From a virus (Duplodnaviria > Heunggongvirae > Uroviricota > Caudoviricetes), in the IMG/VR virus record IMGVR_UViG_2563366998_000011, positions 1-53,254 of that record: 53,254 bases of DNA, one strand, 5' to 3'. This document shows, one piece after another, positions 4,000 to 44,399 of this stretch (the first letter of the stretch is position 1; every line of letters begins with the position of its first letter). Both the position numbers and the translations under genes were made by a program. The notes below the pieces were generated by a model that did no database searches, was not told the origin of the DNA, and worked only from the letters and a program-made list of their open reading frames with translations.

Positions 4000-5118
4000 T
4001 TACAAAATGGAATATTCAGGGTAATAAACAAAGCGCCCAATTTCCCCATGATCCGGGCTGTAAATAATCACCGCTGCCAGACGCCGCGACCGCCAGCCGC
4101 CATTAGTTGAATATGCGTCTTTGCCAGCTAATGTGCCGTGGTGCTCAACTATTCCAAGTGATGTTTCAACAACTGATTGATGGTGCAGATGTCCAGTGTG
4201 AGCGTAAACAGCCACAGACCTTCCGAAATCCTCCCGCCAGTCAGCTACGCAAGCAGACAATAAATTTTCCGGCTTTTTGATAGTGTGCCCGTGGTGGTAA
4301 GCAAGGAATGTTTTGCCATACTGTGTGTGGTGGACAATGGCAGGTGACACGTCAACAGTCACGCGCGGCTCATCTTCGTAAAAAGCCGCAAGCGCAGCAC
4401 GTAGCCAGATCATACCTGATTGGTCGTGATTACCGGATAATACCTGGATCTCGACATCCTTATGATTTAGTAACATCTTCCCGACCGCACGCCGGACCGA
4501 CCGGATCGCCACATAAACCAGTTTTGCGTAGCGTGAATCACAATCTAAAACGTGATTACTTGATGGCGTCACTGGTAACAGGCCGTCAGTGTGAAGCACA
4601 TCACCGCCGAGAAGTAAAACAGCTTTTTCAGACATCGGAGCAGCGCCAACAGCGTAGTCAAAGAAGTCATTCAACACGCGCTCAGCGATCCCAGTATCGT
4701 AGCTCTCACCGCATTCAGCTTTATGAGCAAGCGCCCCGATATGCAGATCAAACACCGGATAAAGTGCCAGGCTTTTTTGAAAATCAATTTCAGGCACTGG
4801 CACAGCCTCCGCGCGTGGTATTTCATCAGTGAAAGCGTCGCGGGCCGCTTCCATTAGCTGTTCCATTTCTTCGCGGTCACGGGCTGTTTTAATCCAGCGC
4901 ATGATAACATTGCCGTTCTTATCGACTAGCAACGACTCGCCATTGACGCCAAAACCAGGAGCGCGGCGTGTTGATAATAAACCACGTTTCGCCAGTTTTG
5001 CGCCCAGGCGCTCGACATTGCGTTTTGACATGCCATATTTTTCAGCAATCTGCTTGTACGTTAAACCGTTGTTATATTCAGCGATCAATTGCTCATCGCT
5101 GATTTTTCTTTGCGACAT
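4000..5118 (-). CDS. HTH-domain protein with metallophosphoesterase motifs (possibly replication-associated)
   Basis: 372 aa; N-terminal HTH (LTYKQIAEKYGMSKRNVERL); motifs DLHIG, GGDVLHTDG, SGNHDQ resembling SbcD/Mre11-type metallophosphoesterases; lies between replisome organizer and helicase. Confidence 0.6.
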   Translation of the reverse strand: MSQRKISDEQLIAEYNNGLTYKQIAEKYGMSKRNVERLGAKLAKRGLLSTRRAPGFGVNGESLLVDKNGNVIMRWIKTARDREEMEQLMEAARDAFTDEIPRAEAVPVPEIDFQKSLALYPVFDLHIGALAHKAECGESYDTGIAERVLNDFFDYAVGAAPMSEKAVLLLGGDVLHTDGLLPVTPSSNHVLDCDSRYAKLVYVAIRSVRRAVGKMLLNHKDVEIQVLSGNHDQSGMIWLRAALAAFYEDEPRVTVDVSPAIVHHTQYGKTFLAYHHGHTIKKPENLLSACVADWREDFGRSVAVYAHTGHLHHQSVVETSLGIVEHHGTLAGKDAYSTNGGWRSRRLAAVIIYSPDHGEIGRFVYYPEYSIL

Positions 5119-6596: not shown

Positions 6597-7649
6597 TCAA
6601 AGAGCGCCTGCGCGTGTGTCGCGTAGCGTTTTTGGTTTAAGCAGGAAATCAAGTGTCGCTGTGAAGCCATTGCCGAAGTAAAAATCTGAAGCCGTGTTTT
6701 TGAATGTTTCGAAGTAGGCGACAAAGCCGTTAATGCTTTTGTCTTTCAGGTAGTCAGTGAACGCATAGATCTTGCGTTCAAGATCCCGATCCAGTTCGAC
6801 AGGTGGTAACAGGCCGTCAAACGTGCTGTTAAATGCTTCCACCACGTCGGCAGCGTTTGCAGTGGCTGACAGTTTGCGCCATTGTTCAGCATCAGTCAGA
6901 TACCCATCAAATTTAGTTACCCGGCAAATATTGATAGGCTTAGGTGTTCCACCACGGCTACGCCATTGCGTTAAAGCCCACTCAATCACTAATGTGATCT
7001 CATCCTCCGTATACGCTTTACGTGTTTTTGTTTCTGTCAGTAGTTCGATGAATGGCTTCGCATCACGACATTTGCATCCTGCCTTGTCGTTGTAGAAGGC
7101 CAGGCAACGCAACGCCGCTTCGTTTACGCCATCATGATTGACCATTTTTTGTTCATTTTCGACAATACACGAAGTGTATATATCTTTTTCTCTTTCTTCT
7201 TCTACTTCTAATTCTAATTCATGACCCTTTCCTGACCCGGTCATGACCCTATCATGACCTTTTTGTGTTGGATTGATTAACTTTTCTAATTTTAATTGCT
7301 CCTTAGCTGTGTTTATGGCGGCCCTGTACGCGCTTTTAGAAGTCATTGATTGGTCAAGCCTTTTCAATAACTTTAAACAAGTTATGTGGCCTTGAGAACA
7401 TTCAAACAAACCAATTTCGATGAAGTATTTCATCATTTCTTCTATACGTTTTTCAGTCGATCCGACGTTTCGCGCAATGATTCTCGCGTCATGTCGTAGG
7501 TCAAAAGTCAGATTGTGCTGATCTACGTCATAAGTTATTAGTTCGAGGCAATACCAATAAAGCCCGTACCCTTCCAGGCCATAATCTAACAAAACGTTTT
7601 GAAGTTTTTCATCGCGGTTCGCATCGCTGTCATGCTTAAACCACTTCAT
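6597..7649 (-). CDS. Phage replication initiation / replisome organizer protein (DUF4373-like N-terminus)
   Basis: 350 aa; N-terminus MKWFKHDSDANRDEKL...YGLEGYGLYWYCLELI matches the Lin1244/DUF4373 pattern of phage replisome organizers. Confidence 0.65.
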   Translation of the reverse strand: MKWFKHDSDANRDEKLQNVLLDYGLEGYGLYWYCLELITYDVDQHNLTFDLRHDARIIARNVGSTEKRIEEMMKYFIEIGLFECSQGHITCLKLLKRLDQSMTSKSAYRAAINTAKEQLKLEKLINPTQKGHDRVMTGSGKGHELELEVEEEREKDIYTSCIVENEQKMVNHDGVNEAALRCLAFYNDKAGCKCRDAKPFIELLTETKTRKAYTEDEITLVIEWALTQWRSRGGTPKPINICRVTKFDGYLTDAEQWRKLSATANAADVVEAFNSTFDGLLPPVELDRDLERKIYAFTDYLKDKSINGFVAYFETFKNTASDFYFGNGFTATLDFLLKPKTLRDTRAGAL

Positions 7650-7652
7650 AGA

Positions 7653-7910
7653 TCATCCCTCCGGCAACATCACTACATAGACATCACTGAATGCATCAAG
7701 ACGACAAACAAATCCTTTATCCATTAACGCGGCGAAGGCATCATGTACCGTATGAACAGGAAGTTCACACATTGCGGCTACTTCTTTGCGTGATGCATCA
7801 TGTACCCGTCCTTTGTTATCTGCCTTTTCAGCCAGAGCCATTAAGACAAGTTTTTGAATCGGGCTATTAAGTTTTACGTTCCATGCTTTACTAATCATGT
7901 TTATACTCAT
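7653..7910 (-). CDS. HTH DNA-binding protein at the Cro position
   Basis: ORF 7653..7988; best start MSINMISK at 7910 with AGGAGAAAA RBS; KLVLMALAEKADNKG resembles HTH_36 winged helix; first gene divergent from the repressor. Confidence 0.5.
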   Translation of the reverse strand: MSINMISKAWNVKLNSPIQKLVLMALAEKADNKGRVHDASRKEVAAMCELPVHTVHDAFAALMDKGFVCRLDAFSDVYVVMLPEG

Positions 7911-8180
7911 CGCATTTTCTCCTATGGTTAGAGTGAACGCGCGGGCGGGCATCCCATTAGCATTAGATAGCAGTGACTGACCGCTCAACAGATCCCGCCG
8001 TTGCGTGATATTTGTTTTTCGCTTCGCAGCGACACCGGATTTTTAAAGAGCATAAGGTAAGTGCCTTTTTGTGCCTTCCGTTATCTTTTTCCTTGCGTCT
8101 TTGCAAGTATGGCCTTACCTTGTCTGCAAGTTTACAAAATGGAATTTTAAGATCAAGGCTTAAAATACACGTTTTGTGAC

Positions 8181-8216
8181 TTGCATCAAACTTTTTGAGG
8201 TTATAGGGTAGCGACA
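8181..8216 (+). promoter_or_regulatory. Candidate pRM-like promoter giving a leaderless cI mRNA
   Basis: TTGCAT (8181-8186), 17-bp spacer, TAGGGT (8204-8209); predicted start coincides with the cI ATG at 8216; no SD upstream. Confidence 0.35.
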
Positions 8217-8863
8217 TGAAAACAAAATGGTATGACTTAGCAAAGCAGCTCATGCGGGCGCAGGGCATGAGCCAGGATTCGCTCGCGGATCGTATGGGGA
8301 TAACTAAAGGCGGCCTGTCACACTGGCTGAACGGTCGCCGAGAGCCAAATCTTGAAGATATTGCGCGGATTATGCGCGAGCTTGGTCGTCGGCAGTTTAC
8401 TGTTACACATGATGGCATGGTCATTGATGATTCTGTTTCTAATACACTTCAGGCCGTGCCGCCGCGTGATTTAGGTAGTTACCCGGTTATTGACTGGAAG
8501 GACACAGTAAACAATATGGATGACGCAAGGCGTTCAGCATTACGACACGTTACGACTAGCGTTATTTGTTCAGATGACAGTTACTGGCTGGTTGCCAAAG
8601 GTGAATCAATGAACGCGCCGCAGGGGTTGAGCATCCCGGCGGGGACGATGATACTTGTGGACCCGCACGCGCCAGCTATTGACGGCAAACTGGTTATAGC
8701 CCAGCTTGAGGAAGGGCAGATACCGACGTTTAAACAGTTGATTATTGATGGAGGTCAAAGGCTTTTACGTTCGCTCAATCCGCTGTATCCGCCAATCCCT
8801 ATGAATCCAGAATCAAAAATTATAGGCGTGGTGGTTGATGCGAAGATCGTAAACCTGCCATAA
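8216..8863 (+). CDS. cI: CI-like repressor (HTH-XRE plus S24 LexA-like peptidase domain)
   Basis: 215 aa; N-terminal HTH (MSQDSLADRMGITKGGLSHWLNGRREP); C-terminal S24 domain with GESM serine and downstream lysine (TFKQL); divergent from the Cro-position gene. Confidence 0.85.
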   Translation: MKTKWYDLAKQLMRAQGMSQDSLADRMGITKGGLSHWLNGRREPNLEDIARIMRELGRRQFTVTHDGMVIDDSVSNTLQAVPPRDLGSYPVIDWKDTVNNMDDARRSALRHVTTSVICSDDSYWLVAKGESMNAPQGLSIPAGTMILVDPHAPAIDGKLVIAQLEEGQIPTFKQLIIDGGQRLLRSLNPLYPPIPMNPESKIIGVVVDAKIVNLP

Positions 8864-8867
8864 ACAT

Positions 8868-8893
8868 TAGCCGCCGAATGGCGGCTTTTCTTT
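8868..8893 (+). terminator. Intrinsic terminator downstream of cI
   Basis: hairpin GCCGCC-GAAT-GGCGGC followed by TTTTCTTT. Confidence 0.6.
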
Positions 8894-8987
8894 GCCTGGG
8901 AAACACCAAAACGTAAACAGAAAACGTTATTTATTATTTAAATATCAATGGCATATAAAATATTTTAAAAAAGTATACAAAATGGAT

Positions 8988-9016
8988 TGACTCGATGTTT
9001 TACGGGGCGTATATTG
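8988..9016 (+). promoter_or_regulatory. Candidate pL-like sigma70 promoter
   Basis: TTGACT, 17-bp spacer, TATATT; immediately preceded by the dispersed TACAAAATGGA motif (8976-8986). Confidence 0.4.
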
Positions 9017-9269
9017 CGAGTCAAAGGAAGGGCGCAGGTAACAAAAGCAACTTCCTGGCACTTTAAAAATCAGGCTTAACACCTTGTCAACCGTGGAGTA
9101 ACTCCCCGATGGGGGACCGAAAGCGGCACTGATAACAAGGCGCATGGGGTGTTTAAAGCGTTACATCCCCCACGAAACCGCACGCAAGGCGACGAGTCAG
9201 CTTGCTTGGAGTGAGCAAGGTCACGCCGGGAACGGCGATGATTGCGGGATTAGTTGAAAGATGTTAAGC

Positions 9270-16604: not shown

Positions 16605-16764
16605 TGTTTACAAAATGGCGTCATTGTGTGATGCGGATCACATAATGGCGCTTTATTGTTTGTTCGCATGTATCCGTTTTGTATACTTCAAACAAACAAA
16701 ATGCTCTTTAAAAATCCGGTAACGCTGAAATGCGTAAAAATCACCTGAAAAAGGAGAGAGCATT

Positions 16765-21883: not shown

Positions 21884-21997
21884 GGCGTTGGACAACCATA
21901 AATGTGATCTGTATCACAATGTATACGAAATGGCATTGTTTCGACAGTGCCATTTTGTTATATATAAGCCACGGAAAGACGGAGGGGAGGCAAGAAG

Positions 21998-28975: not shown

Positions 28976-30382
28976 ATGTATTCAGGAGTAAACATTATGC
29001 CATCCAATTTAGAATTGGCGGTTAATGCTGCCTTGTCACAACGCAAGGCGGCCTTTGCCCGCTATGCAGCCGCTAACCCATTCTCAATGGGTATTGATGC
29101 AAAACGTGATGCTGCGTGGAGTGAATACGGATTCAAAGAAGAAATCACCTATGACGATTTATACAAACTGTATCGTCGCGGTGGTATCGCTCACGGTGCT
29201 ATTGAGAAGATCATCACTACGTGCTGGCGCACCAGGCCAACGCTGATCGAAGGTACGGAAGACGAGAAAGCAGAAAAGGAAACGCCGTGGGAAAGAGAAA
29301 TCAAAAAACAATTTGATAATCGTTTCTGGCGCGTCATAGCTGAATGTGATCGCCGCCGCCTCATTGGTCGTTATGCTGGCCTGTTGATTCATGTCAGAGA
29401 TAACCAGCCGTGGGATCAGCCAGTAACAAAAGGCGTAGGCATTGCCAAATTTACTCCAGTATGGGCTGGTGCTCTGACGCCGAAGGACTTCGAAGAAAAC
29501 CCGGATAAAGAAAACTATGGCCTGCCTACATGGTGGGAATACAAGGAGCGCATCAATAGTAAGACCATAGCAAGAAAGATACATCCAGACCGGATATTCA
29601 TCTTCGGTGACTATTCTGATGATGCTATCGCTTTCCTTGAGCCGTCCTATAACGCTTTTGTATCGCTGGAGAAAGTGGAAGGAGGTAGCGGTGAATCCTT
29701 TCTAAAAAACGCCGCACGTCAACTGGCTATCTCGTTCGATAAAGAGATTGATTTCCGTTCCCTGGCTGCAACATACGGTTGCGACGTTACAGAGCTACGC
29801 GAAAAATTCAATGAAGCGGCAGAGGATATAAACAAAGGGAATGATGTGATGATGGCATTACAGGGAGCCACCGTTAGCCCGCTGGTCACTGCCGTAGCAG
29901 ATCCGTCCGCAACCTATGACGTCAACCTGCAAACCGCCGCCGCTGGTATCGACATTCCAACGCGTATCCTGGTTGGGAATCAGCAGGGCGAACGCGCATC
30001 AACTGAAGACCTCCGCTACTTCAATAATCGCTGTATGACCCGCCGTGAGGAAATAGGAGGCGAGCTTGAGGAACTATTCCGCAAGATGGCAGATCTCCGC
30101 CTTATCAGTATGCCAGTCGATGTATCAGTGTTATGGGATGACCTTAACGCCATGACAAAAGCCGAACTACTGGAAGCGGCACACAAGATGGCGCAAATCA
30201 ATCAGGCATGTCTCGCTACTGGTGAGGAAATATTTAGCGGCGATGAGATCCGCGAAGCTGCCGGATATGAAGGGCCAACGCAGGAAGTAGAAGTGGAAGA
30301 CGAGGACGATAAAGATGAAGATGAAGATGAAAGTAAAGAGAATAATCAAAAAGATTCCGCCGTCCGCGATAATGCCATCTAA
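28976..30382 (+). CDS. Portal protein (putative)
   Basis: 468 aa; position between terminase and MuF-like head protein; acidic C-terminal tail. Confidence 0.6.
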   Translation: MYSGVNIMPSNLELAVNAALSQRKAAFARYAAANPFSMGIDAKRDAAWSEYGFKEEITYDDLYKLYRRGGIAHGAIEKIITTCWRTRPTLIEGTEDEKAEKETPWEREIKKQFDNRFWRVIAECDRRRLIGRYAGLLIHVRDNQPWDQPVTKGVGIAKFTPVWAGALTPKDFEENPDKENYGLPTWWEYKERINSKTIARKIHPDRIFIFGDYSDDAIAFLEPSYNAFVSLEKVEGGSGESFLKNAARQLAISFDKEIDFRSLAATYGCDVTELREKFNEAAEDINKGNDVMMALQGATVSPLVTAVADPSATYDVNLQTAAAGIDIPTRILVGNQQGERASTEDLRYFNNRCMTRREEIGGELEELFRKMADLRLISMPVDVSVLWDDLNAMTKAELLEAAHKMAQINQACLATGEEIFSGDEIREAAGYEGPTQEVEVEDEDDKDEDEDESKENNQKDSAVRDNAI

Positions 30383-36475: not shown

Positions 36476-37183
36476 GTGAATACTATGATCCATGTTCGTA
36501 CAGGACAATTTGCTGCCGTGGTGAACGGTAAGCGCTATGAGTTTAATCCTTGCTTTGCTGCGATGGCTAAAATCGGCAACGATAGTGAGCTTGTCGAATA
36601 TTTCGCACTTATCCACGGCGGCAAATATCCATCACGATTGCCAGCAGATCCAGACCTACGCAATCGCATTCTGGCGCGGTGTTATGGTGAAATAGTTCAG
36701 ACATCAATGCACATCCTGAAATGTTGCTCAGACGACGAAATAGGCCCGTTATTGGGCGAATGCTGGTTTACTCCTTCGGGTAAGTTAAAGTTAAAGCCCG
36801 GATTAATGCCGATCGAGGATATCATCACGCTTGCGCAGCACTGCATGTACCACGGTCTTATTGGTGATGGCCCGGAAGAAGAGTCCGGGGAAATTCCGGA
36901 AGGGGAATATAAGCCGACTTTTAACGTCCTTGAATTCGTCTATTCTGCCGTTGCTCACCTGGGCTTGTCAGAATCGGAAGCATGGAATATGACAATGACC
37001 GGATATAGGGCCGCTGTACGCGCTAAAACGCCGCCAGACGAAAGAAACGAGAAAAGCAAGCCAAACATTCACATAAATAAACGTGCTTATGACGAGCAAA
37101 TGGAGGCCGCTAAAAAGGCACTAGAAAGAATGAAAAATCGTGAGCAAGAAAAGCCCGGTAGATCCGGGCGTTTTGCTAATTGA
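36476..37183 (+). CDS. Tail assembly chaperone (putative)
   Basis: 235 aa; position upstream of tape measure. Confidence 0.45.
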   Translation: MNTMIHVRTGQFAAVVNGKRYEFNPCFAAMAKIGNDSELVEYFALIHGGKYPSRLPADPDLRNRILARCYGEIVQTSMHILKCCSDDEIGPLLGECWFTPSGKLKLKPGLMPIEDIITLAQHCMYHGLIGDGPEEESGEIPEGEYKPTFNVLEFVYSAVAHLGLSESEAWNMTMTGYRAAVRAKTPPDERNEKSKPNIHINKRAYDEQMEAAKKALERMKNREQEKPGRSGRFAN

Positions 37184-37550
37184 AATCTTTAATTGCTGTA
37201 CCTGGTGAACTGTGTGTGATTGTATTGTATACAGACTTTGCCTTACTGCGATCTTTCCATTCTTTTAGGATGCAGTTATCAAACTTTGCGATAACCCTTG
37301 AAGGGGATAATTCTTCAACATCCATGTAAGTAAATCCTATCGTGCTGGTTACTGAATACCATACGTGATAACTATAATTACCGTCATGCTCGATTCTTTG
37401 TGGTTCCCCCATTATTTTATTCACTTGCTCACAAGTCATTCCAACTTGCAAATTTTTATCAGCTAACTTAACGAAATCAGTTGATCTTGCGCACCCTGTA
37501 AGAGCTAAAGCCATAACACCAATGAGAACCGCTTTGATTATTTTTTTCAT
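37176..37550 (-). CDS. Lipoprotein (antisense moron in tail cluster)
   Basis: 124 aa; signal peptide and lipobox LTGC; opposite strand to tail genes. Confidence 0.7.
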   Translation of the reverse strand: MKKIIKAVLIGVMALALTGCARSTDFVKLADKNLQVGMTCEQVNKIMGEPQRIEHDGNYSYHVWYSVTSTIGFTYMDVEELSPSRVIAKFDNCILKEWKDRSKAKSVYNTITHSSPGTAIKDFN

Positions 37551-37560
37551 GATTTACCCC

Positions 37561-38220
37561 TTAATTCCAGTTGCAAGCGTTTTTCACTTTGTCGATGTGG
37601 TTATAAAGACCATCAATGTTAAACACTGCTTTCTCAATGTCGCCAGCTTCCGGCACTACTTCAATGATGAATTGTTTTTCGTTAACCAGTTTTTTAATCA
37701 TTGGGATGGCTTTTTTGCCGTCCCATAATCCAAGAGCTTTATAATTAGTTGACCGCCACCACTCAGTAGCTACAGCTTTGTGAACGCCGATCCGGTAGTT
37801 AATATAAGTAGTGTCCCCGGCGTCAGTTACATGGTGTGACCATGCTACGAACATTTTTGTTTTATTACCCTGGCAAGCGATTGTTAATACCGGTTTATTC
37901 TTATCCTGTGCCTTCAGTGTCGGGAAAGCATCAAGACTTCCGCTGAATTGTTCTGCTTTCACAAAAAGGAATACGTTTTTTGCGTCCTGCATATCATCTT
38001 TTCTTTCAACTACAAGCCACTGTTTACCAGCATTTTCTTTTTCTAACTGTGCATCGTATGCGGCTTGTTTTGCTTGTTGTTCTGCAAGCCATTTAGCATT
38101 TTTCTCTGCTAATGCTTGTTGCTCTTGATTGGTCACTATAGGCGCTTTTTCATTATCCTCATTGCAACCAACCAGACCCAATACCGCCGCAATCATTGCC
38201 ACTTTTGCTAACCGTTTCAT
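37561..38220 (-). CDS. Lipoprotein (antisense moron in tail cluster)
   Basis: 219 aa; signal peptide and lipobox LVGC. Confidence 0.7.
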   Translation of the reverse strand: MKRLAKVAMIAAVLGLVGCNEDNEKAPIVTNQEQQALAEKNAKWLAEQQAKQAAYDAQLEKENAGKQWLVVERKDDMQDAKNVFLFVKAEQFSGSLDAFPTLKAQDKNKPVLTIACQGNKTKMFVAWSHHVTDAGDTTYINYRIGVHKAVATEWWRSTNYKALGLWDGKKAIPMIKKLVNEKQFIIEVVPEAGDIEKAVFNIDGLYNHIDKVKNACNWN

Positions 38221-40690: not shown

Positions 40691-41400
40691 ACTAAACCCC
40701 GGTGCAATGCCGGGGTTATTTTTGTGCACAGAAAACCCCCAGCTAGGCTGGGGGTTCCGGAAAGCTTTCAGCTTTAAGCCAGTTATTAAAACCCCTTTTG
40801 ATTTGTTAAAACACCTTGCGGTCTGGCAACTGCAAGTGTCAAACAAGAAATCAAAAGGGGGTCCCAATGGGGAACGAAAAGAGCTTAGCGCACACCCGAT
40901 GGAACTGTAAATATCACATAGTTTTTGCGCCAAAATACCGAAGACAGGTGTTCTACAGAGAGAAGCGTAGAGCAATAGGCAGTATTTTGAGAAAGCTGTG
41001 TGAGTGGAAAAGTGTACGGATTCTGGAAGCTGAATGCTGTGCAGATCATATCCATATGCTTGTGGAGATCCCGCCCAAAATGAGCGTATCCGGGTTTATG
41101 GGATATCTGAAAGGGAAAAGCAGTCTGATGCTTTACGAGCAGTTTGGTGATTTGAAATTCAAATACAGGAACAGGGAGTTCTGGTGCAGAGGGTACTACG
41201 TCGATACAGTGGGTAAGAACACGGCGAAGATACAGGATTACATAAAGCACCAGCTTGAAGAGGATAAAATGGGAGAGCAGTTATCGATTCCCTATCCGGG
41301 CAGCCCGTTTACGGGCCGTAAGTAACGAAGTTGGATGCAAATGTCAGATCGTGTGCGCCTGTTAGGGCGCGGCTGGTAAGAGAGCCTTATAGGCGCATTT
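40691..41400 (+). mobile_element. IS200 insertion sequence (boundaries approximate)
   Basis: contains IS200-type tnpA; left-end hairpins at 40697-40715 and 40733-40756; about 0.7 kb; inserted between tape measure and gene M. Confidence 0.65.
40867..41325 (+). CDS. tnpA: IS200/IS605-family transposase TnpA
   Basis: ORF 40816..41325, likely start MGNEKSLAHTRWNCKYHIVF; HxH motif (HIHMLVEIPP) and catalytic Tyr region (GYYVDTVG); matches Salmonella IS200 TnpA as recalled. Confidence 0.9.
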   Translation: MGNEKSLAHTRWNCKYHIVFAPKYRRQVFYREKRRAIGSILRKLCEWKSVRILEAECCADHIHMLVEIPPKMSVSGFMGYLKGKSSLMLYEQFGDLKFKYRNREFWCRGYYVDTVGKNTAKIQDYIKHQLEEDKMGEQLSIPYPGSPFTGRK

Positions 41401-41425
41401 GAAAAACCTCCGGCTATGCCGGAGG
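41399..41425 (-). terminator. Minus-strand intrinsic terminator
   Basis: hairpin CCTCCGGCATAGCCGGAGG followed by TTTTTC on minus strand. Confidence 0.5.
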
Positions 41426-41488: not shown

Positions 41489-41743
41489 TCACTTATGAGT
41501 GCCTTTCACGCCACATAACTTGTTATAGGCATGGTGCTCAACAATTAACCAAACCTTCAAATCTTCGCTAAACAGCCTCCAATCAAGATTGATATCCATT
41601 TTGTATCCGTAACCGTCGCGTAACTTTTTGGGGTAAACTTCTTTTCTCAGAAAGGCTTTAAGTAATTCCTTACCTTTCTTGATGATCCGGTCCTGTGCGT
41701 TTTTCTGTGCTTTCAGATTTCTGTCAATCGCTACCAGTTTCAT
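41489..41743 (-). CDS. Hypothetical protein, possible RelE/YafQ-like toxin
   Basis: 84 aa; basic; C-terminal ...VKGTHK loosely resembles the YafQ/RelE C-terminus; second gene of a two-gene antisense operon. Confidence 0.3.
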   Translation of the reverse strand: MKLVAIDRNLKAQKNAQDRIIKKGKELLKAFLRKEVYPKKLRDGYGYKMDINLDWRLFSEDLKVWLIVEHHAYNKLCGVKGTHK

Positions 41744-41760
41744 AACTCACCCCATCATCC

Positions 41761-41916
41761 TTAGTTAAGTGCCTTCAGGAAGAAGTCCCGGTATTCATCT
41801 TCTTTCGCATTCATCATGAATTGACCGTATTTGAATGCGTCGTCGAAACCCTTAACGATTGCTATTTCCACTTGTTCGAATGCGTTATTTAGCATTACTA
41901 CTACATAGCGTTTCAT
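41761..41916 (-). CDS. Small hypothetical protein (51 aa), possible antitoxin partner
   Basis: MKRYVVVMLNNAFEQ...; strong GAAGGAGG RBS; 18 nt upstream of the 84-aa gene. Confidence 0.35.
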   Translation of the reverse strand: MKRYVVVMLNNAFEQVEIAIVKGFDDAFKYGQFMMNAKEDEYRDFFLKALN

Positions 41917-42083: not shown

Positions 42084-42437
42084 ATGCCGGAAGTGTTCAG
42101 ATGGACGCCGCAAAGAAGCTACAGCGTGACCAGGAAGCCAGACGTATCTGTTGTTAAGCTGGGCGATGGTTATGAGCAAAGACAGGTAAAAGGTATCAAT
42201 CCATTGCTTGATAGCTACACCCTGGTGTTTAAAGGCAGTAGCGCCGGATGTGGTGATGGTGGAAACGTAGCAATCCAGGCGGAAGCATTCTTGAGGGCGC
42301 GCGGCGCGGTCGAGGCTTTTTACTGGTCGCCGTCAATGGATAACGTGCAAAGGCTTTTTGTCTGTCGGCAATGGAGCATGACTAAAGACGGGCCTTTGTA
42401 CACGCTAAACGCAACGTTTGAGCAAGTTGTTGGCTAA
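42084..42437 (+). CDS. M: Minor tail protein M
   Basis: 117 aa; FRW...KLGDGYEQR...EAFL...WSP...FEQVVG matches lambda gpM. Confidence 0.85.
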   Translation: MPEVFRWTPQRSYSVTRKPDVSVVKLGDGYEQRQVKGINPLLDSYTLVFKGSSAGCGDGGNVAIQAEAFLRARGAVEAFYWSPSMDNVQRLFVCRQWSMTKDGPLYTLNATFEQVVG

Positions 42438-42634
42438 TGGGGGTTGTTATGTACGGGACTTGTGTAGTTGACAAAACTTACGCTTTTACATTGTTTGACG
42501 ACTATGAGATCAACGACCTTACTGTAAAAGCTGACAACGGCGATATATGGTATCTTCACGACGTTGGTGATGGGTACGTTGGGTGTAGATCCCGGGAAGG
42601 GAAGGAGGTTTTATTTTTGGTTGATGGCGTATAA
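42437..42634 (+). CDS. Hypothetical protein
   Basis: 65 aa ORF coupled to M stop; followed by terminator. Confidence 0.4.
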   Translation: MGVVMYGTCVVDKTYAFTLFDDYEINDLTVKADNGDIWYLHDVGDGYVGCRSREGKEVLFLVDGV

Positions 42635-42638
42635 ACAC

Positions 42639-42668
42639 GACCCCGCGCGAAGCGGGGTTATTTTTATT
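42639..42668 (+). terminator. Intrinsic terminator within tail cluster
   Basis: hairpin CCCCGC-GCGAA-GCGGGG followed by TTATTTTTATT. Confidence 0.55.
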
Positions 42669-42790
42669 CTATTTCCATTAATGCTATATTTTCTGCTATC
42701 GTTTTCCAGTCCAGATCTACAGCATGAACGCCAAATACTATCAACCACATTATTATTAGCGCCAAAACTTCTATTTTTATAATCAGTCAC

Positions 42791-43039
42791 CTATAAGTTA
42801 TCACGCAGATAATTAACGCCCTTATCAGTGACGAATGAATGGTTAACCTGGTTTTCATCCGTCATGATGATGAATAACTTTTCATGTAGGTATTTCGCTT
42901 TCGGGTACAGCGTTAAACAGACCTGGTACAGTATCCCGCGCTCAATCAGCAAATCAATAAATTCGTGTTCATGATAACCGATGAGGCGGGCGGCCTGTTT
43001 CAACGTGTACACATAATCACCGTGATTGCGCCGCCCCAT
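42791..43039 (-). CDS. Hypothetical protein (possible HTH), antisense moron
   Basis: 82 aa ORF on opposite strand between M and L. Confidence 0.4.
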   Translation of the reverse strand: MGRRNHGDYVYTLKQAARLIGYHEHEFIDLLIERGILYQVCLTLYPKAKYLHEKLFIIMTDENQVNHSFVTDKGVNYLRDNL

Positions 43040-43048
43040 GTTGCCGCC

Positions 43049-43396
43049 TTATTTATCGAATGCTGAAAGGTTATCGATACAGAAATCTTTCGCCGCTTTT
43101 TCGTATTCGCGTTTTGCTTCTGGATCGTCAGCCGGGAAACCTTTTGCGTGTATTTCACCAGGGCAAGACTGGTCCATAGAATCTGCATAATAAGCAGTGA
43201 AGCTACCATTAATATCTTTCGGGTTCATATCTTCCACCTCATCAACTATATGTACCGGATTAGCAGCATATTTCACTGGATGGCCTAAACTACATTCAAG
43301 AATCCTGCCTTCTTCCAGGGCTACTTCTTCGCTATCAAATAATCCGAAACACTCCTTGCTACCACTTAACCACACATCAAGACTGTATTTTTTCAT
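43049..43396 (-). CDS. Hypothetical protein, antisense moron
   Basis: ORF 43049..43498; likely start MKKYSLDV at 43396 with GAGG RBS. Confidence 0.4.
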   Translation of the reverse strand: MKKYSLDVWLSGSKECFGLFDSEEVALEEGRILECSLGHPVKYAANPVHIVDEVEDMNPKDINGSFTAYYADSMDQSCPGEIHAKGFPADDPEAKREYEKAAKDFCIDNLSAFDK

Positions 43397-43565
43397 TTTT
43401 GTTAGCCTCATATTTGACAGGTTCGATCTGGTATCCCAAAAGGCGGTCATCCTCAGCAAGTAAAAGCGCGTCAACCAATGCTTCACCCTCGTCGTCATAC
43501 AGGGCGATAACCTTTTCCCTACCGTCTGTCATGAATACCGTCAACTTCCATAGCTTTTCAGTCAT
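43377..43565 (-). CDS. Hypothetical protein (62 aa), antisense moron
   Basis: ORF 43377..43685; likely start MTEKLWK at 43565 with GGAGGTG RBS. Confidence 0.4.
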   Translation of the reverse strand: MTEKLWKLTVFMTDGREKVIALYDDEGEALVDALLLAEDDRLLGYQIEPVKYEANKNEKIQS

Positions 43566-43694
43566 AACGCACCTCCGCGCCATTTTGTTAACTATGCTTC
43601 CGTTTGAGTAAAATATACATATTGTAAAAACCGCGATCAATCCATTTTGGTATGATTTAGCGTGACGCAGATCACAGAATGACAAGGTGAGAAA

Positions 43695-44399
43695 ATGCGC
43701 AATATTCCGAGAGAAATGATTATTGATTCCGTCGATGCCGGAGTCGGCGCGGTAATTGACTTGTTTGAATTAGACCTCACGCCCCTGGGTGGCGAGGTTA
43801 TCCGCTTCCATTCCGGCGTGAATGGCTATTACGGCCCGGTTATCTGGAAGGGGGTGGCTTACAACAGCTACCCTATCGAGGCCACTGGCTTCGAAATGAA
43901 AAACGAGGGTGTCTATTCACGCCCGCAAATGGTTGTAGCCAACATTGGCGGCCTAATCACCGGGATGAATAACGATTTCAACGACCTGCGAGGAATGAAA
44001 GTTACACGCCGCCAGGTGGAAGTAAAATACCTGGACGCCATCAACTTCCCCAACGGCAACCCGGATGCAGATCCGTCTATCGAGGCGGTGTCTTTTTACG
44101 TCGTTGAGGCGATGAGCGAAGAAACAGCCGACCAGGTGCAATATGAGCTGTCAACGCCAATTGATGCTGACAAGGCGGTTATCCCAGGGCGCACAATCCT
44201 TGCTGACGTTTGCCAATGGCAATATCGCGGCGACGGTTGCGGATACAGTGGCGGCCCTGTAGCTACTGATAAAGACGAATCGACCAGCGATCCAAAGCTG
44301 GATAAATGCAGCCACCGCCTGAGCGGTTGCCGTTTACGTTTCCCGCGCCCGAATCCGTTACCAATTTCATGTTTCCCAGGATCGAGCAAGGTGGGTTGA
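43695..44399 (+). CDS. L: Minor tail protein L
   Basis: 234 aa; LDLT..GGE...WQG..Y..YPI...GFE ... FPGR...A..C.W.YRGD.CGYSG ... DKCS..LSGC matches lambda gpL. Confidence 0.9.
   Translation: MRNIPREMIIDSVDAGVGAVIDLFELDLTPLGGEVIRFHSGVNGYYGPVIWKGVAYNSYPIEATGFEMKNEGVYSRPQMVVANIGGLITGMNNDFNDLRGMKVTRRQVEVKYLDAINFPNGNPDADPSIEAVSFYVVEAMSEETADQVQYELSTPIDADKAVIPGRTILADVCQWQYRGDGCGYSGGPVATDKDESTSDPKLDKCSHRLSGCRLRFPRPNPLPISCFPGSSKVG

Follow-up and report, generated by a model that had tools for sequence, protein, structure and literature searches.

The 53,254-nt stretch of DNA analysed here (hereafter the window) is positions 1 to 53,254 of IMG/VR record IMGVR_UViG_2563366998_000011, from a virus of the Caudoviricetes; on sequence grounds it is a mEp021-like (mEpimmI) E. 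coli prophage, one of a group described as Nus-dependent, Q-dependent and non-lambdoid (PMC11893012). This account concerns a small antisense gene cassette that lies within its tail operon. The tail genes of phage lambda run V-G-T-H-M-L-K-I-J, with M and L adjacent. In the window, the interval from M to L holds the following features:

42084..42437, plus strand: M, minor tail protein, left flank (PF05939, E=1.2e-27; named 'phage tail protein' in strains GN04592 and CB7286)
42437..42634, plus strand: orf65, small acidic gene of 65 aa, the final gene ahead of the terminator (phrog_3249, E=1.5e-22)
42639..42659, both strands: bidirectional intrinsic terminator, hairpin GACCCCGCGCGAAGCGGGGTT then ATTTTTATTC
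42780..42664, minus strand: remnant of gene D, recognised by comparison with relatives
43039..42791, minus strand: gene A, 82 aa (PF03374; phrog_5689, E=6e-22)
43396..43049, minus strand: gene B, 115 aa (phrog_38567)
43565..43377, minus strand: gene C, 62 aa (from the list of open reading frames, ORFs)
between C and L: intergenic region of 129 nt with regulatory elements
43695..44399, plus strand: L, minor tail protein, right flank (PF05100, E=9e-72)

The first-pass annotation of this DNA had described three minus-strand genes of 82, 115 and 62 aa between M and L, a terminator behind M and a small ORF, and two copies of a dispersed motif on the L side. All of these are present, the hairpin at 42639-42659 scoring on both strands and the motif, CCATTTTG, standing at 43580-43587 and 43642-43649. 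On the plus strand, the ATG of orf65 overlaps the stop codon of M (TAATG), an arrangement that points to translational coupling; its ratio of nonsynonymous to synonymous substitution rates (dN/dS) is 0.11 and the isoelectric point (pI) of its product is 4.2. On the minus strand, a strong Shine-Dalgarno sequence (GGAGGTG) precedes C, the ATG of B lies 20 nt inside the 3′ end of C, and 9 nt separate the stop codon of B from the start of A. Given this overlap and short spacing, C, B and A form one tightly coupled operon.

The hairpin behind orf65 has a folding energy of -16.6 kcal/mol on the plus strand and -16.3 kcal/mol on the minus strand (z-scores -3.65 and -2.76, with no shuffled sequence as stable), the minus-strand U-tract (CGUGUUUAUA) being the weaker. 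The mEp021 record carries the terminator as TERM_11/12, on both strands, and that of mEp554 as T18; it is predicted to end transcription of M-orf65 in one direction and of the C-B-A(-D) operon in the other.

The cassette had been taken for an insert that splits M from L, a view that comparison with relatives did not bear out. The M–L stretch is 100% identical to that of the prophage in E. coli GN04592 and several other strains, and ∼85-89% identical to those of mEp021, mEp554, mEp013, mEp010, mEp044, mEp515 and MagusPhagus. Across a set of 51 related loci (two mEp phage records, 43 IMG/VR contigs and several E. coli prophages), the layout M-orf65-terminator-A-B-C-L recurs in all but one, and the cassette is thus ancestral to the mEpimmI group rather than a prophage-specific insert. 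The exception, E. coli MS 21-1 (L003, NZ_CP146670.1), carries a prophage that is near-identical elsewhere, the tape-measure and M proteins being the same, and from which 1.13 kb corresponding to window positions 42446-43577 are missing (L003 4354-4479). This deletion takes orf65, D, A, B and C and leaves M and L 125 bp apart; the left side of the junction falls 9 nt inside orf65 and the right side at 43578, with 2 bp of microhomology (AT), and the minus-strand promoter region is entire. As its junction reads, MS 21-1 is a secondary deletion and not an empty site. It shows that a resident prophage can lose the cassette together with orf65, and has no bearing on virion production.

In mEp021 (MH706966.1), the cassette likewise lies between the M-orf65 pair (gp69-70) and L (gp75), on the same strand and with a bidirectional terminator; gp74 corresponds to C, gp73 to B and gp71 to A (98% identical). 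It differs from that of the window in that an extra gene of 75-77 aa, gp72, stands between B and A, in that D is intact, and in that the N-terminal domain of B and the whole of C are only 61-69% identical. The description of the cassette as a unit of three genes therefore holds for C, B and A, but many relatives have a fourth, D. A 'KilAC-like antirepressor' is listed among the genes of all 48 mEpimmI genomes in a published manual analysis, which gives no discussion or function for the cassette genes (PMC11893012).

The 129-nt spacer between C and L is ∼89% conserved across 37 unique variants from the relatives although the adjoining gene C is highly variable. The following elements are predicted within it:

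43580..43587, plus strand: motif copy 2, CCATTTTG (minus strand AACAAAATGG), in the predicted 5′ untranslated region of C, 15 nt upstream of its ATG
43640..43612, minus strand: near-consensus sigma-70-type promoter with -35 TTGATC (43640-43635), 17-nt spacer and -10 TATATT (43617-43612); start predicted at ∼43605
43642..43649, plus strand: motif copy 1 (minus strand CAAAATGG), 1 nt upstream of the -35 element
43661..43676, no strand assigned: palindrome TGTGATCTGCGTCACG of the cAMP receptor protein (CRP) type, centre 43668.5, ∼62-64 nt upstream of the predicted start

Both TTGAT and TATATT are invariant in the 37 variants, in which the -35 element reads TTGAT(C/A). The two motif copies form an 11-nt direct repeat, 62 nt apart. 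Copy 2 is nearly invariant, a single substitution (AAAACGG) occurring in one variant, and is lost at the MS 21-1 deletion junction; copy 1 varies, about half of the variants reading CAAAACGG, and may be either an UP-element-like sequence or an activator site. In the window, CCATTTTG occurs 14 times against 3.7 ± 1.9 expected, and no shuffle reached 14. The palindrome takes the form TGTGAT-N4-(G/A)TCACG; in its core, GTGAT-N5-TCAC, the two arms are invariant and the spacer is variable, as expected for the binding site of a dimer, and the core is as good as that of the lac site. At class I CRP promoters, a TGTGA-N6-TCACA site is centred at -61.5 (or -71.5, -82.5 or -92.5) upstream of a sigma-70 promoter. 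The cassette palindrome lies close to the first of these positions and is a candidate CRP site. Sites of the form TGTGA-N6-TCAC number four in the window (six strand-hits), against 0.36 expected. Perfect CRP-type palindromes TGTGAT-N4-ATCACA are found elsewhere, at 16627-16642, where the palindrome caps a terminator-like hairpin of 16 bp (16617-16652) ahead of ninG, and at 21903-21918, followed ∼60 nt downstream by a TATATA box and a CCATTTTG copy; another stands at 4590-4604. We rejected the idea that the CRP-type palindromes and CCATTTTG make up one composite element, as their spacing and orientation differ between sites. Rfam yielded no matches.

The base composition of the locus also stands apart: M has a GC content of 0.48-0.49 and L one of 0.53-0.55, whereas the stretch 42400-43600 has only 0.40-0.45. 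A moron is defined as an independent accessory transcription unit in a phage late operon (PMC3594210), and the cassette has its own predicted promoter, its own terminator, a deviant GC content and a position between genes that are adjacent in lambda. Since it lies on the opposite strand, it cannot be read with the tail operon. The mEp021 record mapped by mass spectrometry, moreover, labels gp69 and gp75 as structural but not gp70-74. We consider it highly probable that the cassette is an autonomous, non-structural accessory operon, a moron, ancestral to the mEp021/mEpimmI group. The first-pass annotation had called it a moron likely expressed in the lysogen, and had named conserved structural or assembly genes transcribed with the tail operon as what would speak against this. 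Nothing of that kind was found, given the opposite strand, the separate promoter and terminator and the absence of structural labels. The call stands as regards promoter, terminator, GC content, orientation and loss in MS 21-1, and has to be amended in that the cassette is not sporadic but near-universal in mEpimmI. That it would be expressed in the lysogen we infer solely from the logic of its promoter and terminator.

The cassette is one of three low-GC islands that run antisense to the tail operon:

37176..38220, minus strand: TagO-like protein and a 124-aa ORF, between a tail chaperone gene and H
41489..41916, minus strand: ParE-like island, between H and M
42791..43565, minus strand: the cassette genes A, B and C

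The tail genes have a GC content of 0.47-0.59, which falls to 0.38-0.45 in each island; the island promoters (∼38301-38268, 41992-41959 and 43647-43614) have the common form AAAATGG-N-(-35)-17-TATA(A/T)N. The window has four copies of the composite AAATGG-N-TT-N20-22-TATA, against 0.08 expected, and relatives conserve it; its sites are the heads of all three antisense islands and an early promoter downstream of the repressor gene (8980-9013, plus strand). None of the three island promoters contains TGCRAGT, a candidate repressor half-site whose only cluster is in the immunity region (8102-9021). Four of the ten window copies of this heptamer, TGC(A/G)AGT, lie around the gene of the LexA-family repressor (8102-8185 and 8990-9024), and an inverted half-site pair, TTGACTCG...CGAGTCAA, brackets the -35 to -10 stretch of the early promoter. 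The lack of candidate repressor half-sites at the cassette promoter, together with a signature shared with the ParE-like island, lends indirect support to expression from the prophage, and the common promoter signature and CRP-type sites suggest that host physiology controls prophage accessory genes jointly.

The ParE-like island encodes an 84-aa protein with a ParE-like toxin domain (41489..41743, minus strand; PF24732, E=9e-12) and an upstream partner of 51 aa (41761..41916, minus strand; phrog_29810). It is probably a toxin-antitoxin pair; the pair is conserved in relatives, and the NCBI annotation pipeline (PGAP) gives the name 'ParE family toxin-like protein'. Between this island and the tape-measure gene, an IS200-family transposase gene (40816..41325, plus strand; PF01797, E=5e-38) lies between hairpins at 40695-40717 and 41407-41425; as it is absent from the otherwise identical GN04592, CB7286 and MS 21-1 copies, it was inserted recently. 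Elsewhere in the prophage, the gene that occupies the portal position (window ∼28976..30382; L049 29806-31176) is named 'anti-CBASS protein Acb1 family protein' by PGAP and 'portal protein' in mEp021 (gp52), which would make it either a fused or a mis-named family.

The cassette genes evolve at very different rates. For ∼40 unique alleles each of A, B and C, and for the flanking tail genes, the estimates are:

A: dN/dS 0.10; dN 0.034
B, whole: dN/dS 0.21; dN 0.31 in the N-terminal half and 0.066 in the C-terminal half
C: dN/dS 0.23; dN 0.21
M: dN/dS 0.07; dN 0.059
L: dN/dS 0.04; dN 0.032

By these measures A, B and C are real genes under purifying selection, at very unequal rates, B and C being 5-10 times as variable as A, M or L. 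Clustering at 90% identity in a 5.8-billion-protein index gave 58 clusters for B, 20 for C and 7 for A, all from E. coli or mEp-like sources, and all seven A clusters are of 82 aa. At the DNA level, conservation within the M–L interval peaks in A (0.92-0.95) and in the 3′ half of B (0.90-0.94), which surpass the tail genes and together make up one contiguous block at 0.90-0.95 identity; it is lowest in the 5′ half of B (0.57-0.68), in C (0.64-0.78) and in the slot that follows A (0.47-0.56). When alleles are separated at >25% amino-acid distance, the B N-terminal domain falls into five classes and C into four, and these reassort almost freely, with distance-matrix correlations of 0.08-0.33 for the B N-terminal domain and 0.18-0.53 for C (the highest being that of C with L). 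The matrices of C and the B N-terminal domain barely correlate (r=0.33), which supports co-evolution no more than it opposes it. Within gene A (42834-43033), synonymous divergence is unusually low (dS 0.36, against 0.76-0.92 in M, L and B), for which a recent sweep, a recombination anchor or an extra constraint at the nucleotide level are possible explanations.

Protein A matches the KilAC/ANT family PF03374 with 29.4 bits against a cut-off of 25.3, its residues 10-82 covering model positions 23-105 of 108, and PGAP names it 'phage antirepressor KilAC domain-containing protein'. It has none of the N-terminal AntA/B, Bro-N or pRha domains that would mark a full-length antirepressor. By its domain content A is a stand-alone KilAC domain protein and nothing else, and the most conserved element of the cassette. 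Beyond the group, A could be related only to proteins of 206-233 aa from Vibrio, Cronobacter, Hafnia and Stx phages, named 'Rha family' or 'antirepressor', and there to the C-terminal half (30-38% identity); the two that were checked consist of pRha and KilAC. No match to A was found in one-genome-per-species contigs, no solved structure was matched by its sequence, and a match to the UPF0175 antitoxin family fell below threshold (16.9 bits against a cut-off of 27.9, E=0.005). To our knowledge, functional data on KilAC are so far confined to the suppression of SOS by Listeria AriS and to the growth inhibition that phi11 Gp07 reportedly causes. In AriS, the isolated KilAC domain suffices to suppress SOS, probably via RecA, and the AriS family joins a constant KilAC domain to interchangeable N-terminal domains (PMC9043618).

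Proteins B and C are acidic and hydrophilic overall, with negative grand average of hydropathicity (GRAVY): B has a pI of 4.5 and a net charge of -12, and C a pI of 4.4, a net charge of -6.5 and a GRAVY of -0.42. C, which is 62 aa long in the window, has 51 aa in most relatives. AlphaFold2 (AF2) predicts strands at residues 2-10, 13-20 and 42-49 and a helix at 23-37 of B, and strands at 3-12, 17-23 and 42-52 and a helix at 26-37 of C, each with a predicted local distance difference test (pLDDT) of ∼90 (for residues 1-50 in B). C and the N-terminal domain of B (residues 1-50) are thus predicted to have one common beta-beta-alpha-beta fold. Direct profile alignment with hhalign gave E=0.0046 at a probability of only 7.6%, so that the proposed paralogy of the two stems from identical predicted topology and not from sequence. 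The N-terminal domain of B is hypervariable, and the C-terminal half (∼residues 69-115) is highly conserved, with C78 and C106 invariant and H83 nearly so. AF2 leaves this half unfolded except for one helix (pLDDT <50 for residues 61-88); a segment that is conserved and yet predicted with such low confidence is typical of one that folds on a partner. A profile search of 1.84 billion representative proteins recovered for B only its own family and fragments, and neither B nor C matched any family beyond its own PHROG, whether in Pfam, NCBIfam or PADLOC. Against BFVD, C matched only uncharacterised small phage proteins, many phage proteins of 55-65 aa having this fold. The name 'transporter' that PGAP gives to the 51-62 aa C family (e.g., L005 4326-4481) is unsupported, C being acidic, hydrophilic and predicted soluble, and looks like an annotation artefact.

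In relatives, gene D encodes a single-pass hydrophobic peptide of 38-45 aa (MKIEVLALIIMGLIVFGVHA...) on the minus strand, directly after A and ahead of the terminator. The frame was found in 30 loci (20 unique sequences), and its ratio of nonsynonymous to synonymous polymorphism (pN/pS) is 0.23, so far below the 0.70 and 0.66 of the other two frames that D must be a real gene; it is absent from ∼15 loci. In the window, the start codon reads ATA in place of ATG (42780-42778), a variant confined to the clade of the window, and the remaining frame is open to a TAA at 42666-42664; D is probably inactive or shortened here. A 59-aa ORF with a GTG start in the mechanical ORF list (42790..42611) was set aside, since it is not in the conserved frame (pN/pS 0.66-0.70, against 0.23 for D). 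Two slots of the cassette vary among relatives. Between B and A lies nothing (13 nt), a gene of 75-81 aa of the gp72 type or an HNH endonuclease gene, and the interval downstream of A spans 107-792 nt. HNH homing-endonuclease genes occupy differing points of the tail region in relatives: ∼3030-3500 of L047 (IMGVR_UViG_3300029816_000005), between B and A, and 7415-7981 of the mEp021 locus (L001; gp78), between I and J. We also considered whether gp72 might be Ipe, the haemolysis-inducing lysogenic-conversion protein of mEp021, which is given as a 77-aa ORF (PMC6379469), a length at which gp72 can also be read; in GenBank, however, ipe is mEp021_29, in the early region, and the identification was dropped. 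No ipe-matching ORF was found in the window.

We propose that the operon supplies a split form of an Ant-like regulator. Host RNA polymerase would transcribe C-B-A(-D) leftward from ∼43605, without dependence on the late operon, both in the repressed prophage and, probably, as soon as the DNA has entered the cell, with probable enhancement by cAMP-CRP. The hairpin would stop this transcription and so prevent an antisense run into M. During lytic growth, Q-antiterminated late transcription would pass the same hairpin and, being convergent, damp the cassette; the annotation of this prophage type includes a Q antiterminator, which would explain how late transcription passes the hairpin after orf65. 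The products would act in the cytoplasm, through protein-protein and possibly DNA binding, and not in the virion. A would supply the KilAC regulatory module, which in regulators of the Rha/Ant/AriS type normally forms the C-terminal half; B would dock to A through its conserved tail, non-covalently replacing the interchangeable N-terminal domain; and the hypervariable B N-terminal domain, with its paralogue C, would set target specificity. The case for a split module is built on the KilAC-only architecture of A, the block of conservation that unites the C-terminal half of B with A, the low pLDDT of that half, the 9-nt gap between the two genes and the AriS precedent. It would also agree with the published finding that UV fails to induce most mEpimmI lysogens (PMC11893012).

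Several points weigh against this reading. The promoter, the binding of CRP and the lysogenic expression of the cassette are predictions, and the interaction of B with A is a proposal drawn from sequence. The match of A to PF03374 is modest (E=1e-6), AriS function was shown in a Firmicute and the homology of A to AriS is at the level of the domain only, and two fold searches returned no function-specific match for B or C. The distance matrices of the C-terminal half of B and of A show no co-variation (r=0.12), though both proteins are nearly invariant there. The palindrome centre is 1-2 bp off the canonical -61.5, and its spacing to the -35 element varies by 1 nt between relatives. The signature of CAAAATGG plus promoter occurs also at the early promoter at 8980, so that the islands could be early-lytic rather than lysogenic. 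Finally, the absence of UV induction has been attributed by those who reported it to a repressor that lacks a cleavage site (PMC11893012). We give the whole reading, a moron operon including a split Ant-like function, an even chance at best, and the specific function is much less certain. That A is recruited by the adaptors B and C under cAMP-CRP control to work as a split antirepressor switch, or else that A is the first KilAC-type Aca regulator of two new anti-defence families, seems to us quite unlikely in either form.

The main rival is that the cassette is an anti-defence operon of the acr-aca type, in which C, B and the optional genes are small acidic inhibitors of host immune or competitor proteins, made at DNA entry from a strong host-type promoter, and A is an Aca-like autorepressor that acts at the repeats or the palindrome. 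The gene order is as this would have it, with a promoter, variable small acidic proteins and a conserved regulator of ∼80 aa at the 3′ end; the excess of clusters in B and C over A, their divergent and reassorting classes, the variable slots between B and A and downstream of A, the conserved repeats that flank the promoter and the restriction of the orphans B and C to one phage group all fit as well. Aca proteins are diverse and regulate anti-defence operons, although KilAC is not mentioned among the Aca families in the study concerned (PMC13551039). The B and C families, however, persist in every member of the group, whereas Acr loci typically swap unrelated families; a CRP-type, possibly starvation-linked promoter is atypical of acr loci; and structural matches were below significance. 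We regard this explanation as unlikely, though far from negligible.

Superinfection exclusion or abortive infection would cast D as the effector, comparable to HK97 gp15, with A, B and C regulating or sensing. In its favour, the hydrophobic single-pass peptide D is conserved and evolves under purifying selection in 30 loci, tail-operon morons are known to encode small inner-membrane exclusion proteins (PMC3594210), a neighbouring antisense island is ParE-like, and the hypervariable B and C could be sensors. The proposed effector is nevertheless dispensable, being absent from ∼15 loci and start-less in the clade of the window while C, B and A are intact; no PADLOC defence model matches A, B or C (D was not scanned), which lack enzymatic or NTPase domains; and the exclusion function that has been studied experimentally in the group is that of a lipoprotein, gp81, encoded elsewhere. 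We therefore hold exclusion to be improbable. A toxin-antitoxin or addiction module that stabilises the prophage would suit the small, tightly coupled genes, the weak UPF0175 match (E=0.005) by which A is helix-turn-helix-like, the adjacent ParE-like pair, and the likeness of D to small membrane toxins in size and hydrophobicity. Yet A, B and C match no toxin family (Pfam, NCBIfam and PADLOC), MS 21-1 has cleanly lost the entire cassette, and B and C look like acidic binders that lack catalytic motifs, all of which makes such a module very improbable. That the genes are tail assembly or structural accessories working within the tail operon, as their place between M and L, their conservation group-wide and the count of a KilAC-like protein in all 48 genomes (PMC11893012) might suggest, is scarcely credible given the opposite strand, the separate promoter and terminator, the GC content below that of the tail genes, the regulator domain family of A, the lack of a virion label for gp71-74 in the mEp021 record and a variability of B and C far above that of M and L.

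The phages concerned have been sequenced and published, with the cassette proteins annotated as hypothetical, and the architecture described here is that of a textbook-quality moron, useful rather than surprising. What is of interest is the solo KilAC protein in the company of two hypervariable paralogous mini-proteins, the promoter signature common to three islands and the CRP-type sites. If the operon is expressed from the prophage, it would be a conserved lysogenic-conversion or regulatory unit in a phage group reported to be as common as the lambdoid phages in human gut E. coli (PMC11893012), and the role of a lone KilAC in a Gram-negative host, together with the reason why two paralogues diversify 5-10 times faster than the surrounding genome, would become testable. 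If the split switch is true, it would provide SOS-independent, nutrient-linked modulation of repressor or RecA activity in non-UV-inducible phages, and so would affect the stability of the lysogen and of co-resident prophages.

The cassette invites comparison with four known systems. Like HK97 gene 15 and other lambdoid morons, which are meant for expression from a repressed prophage, it has its own promoter and terminator and a deviant GC content and lies between tail-operon genes that are adjacent in relatives; HK97 gp15, however, is a single inner-membrane exclusion protein, whereas the cassette is an antisense multi-gene operon of cytoplasmic proteins with a KilAC protein, and it is not sporadic but fixed throughout its phage group (PMC3594210). 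With acr-aca operons, it has in common the gene order and a site inside the structural-gene region of temperate phages, a likeness of architecture alone, and it differs in the constancy of the B and C families, the CRP-type promoter and the antisense orientation to its flanks (PMC9410906, PMC13551039). The immI region of P22 (mnt-arc-ant) offers a further parallel: a secondary regulatory island, embedded among the late genes and served by promoters of its own, it combines an antirepressor-family protein with small regulators. Its Ant, though, is an antirepressor of full length, and its Arc and Mnt are repressors of the ribbon-helix-helix type; A, in contrast, is only KilAC, and B and C are predicted to be beta-beta-alpha-beta and not ribbon-helix-helix proteins. 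The likeness to regulators of the Rha/Ant/AriS type (e.g., Listeria AriS, PMC9043618, and Cronobacter ENT47670 Ant) is that A is a near full-length KilAC domain, and the difference is that A lacks the N-terminal domain, so that its variable partner, if any, would be a separate polypeptide, B.

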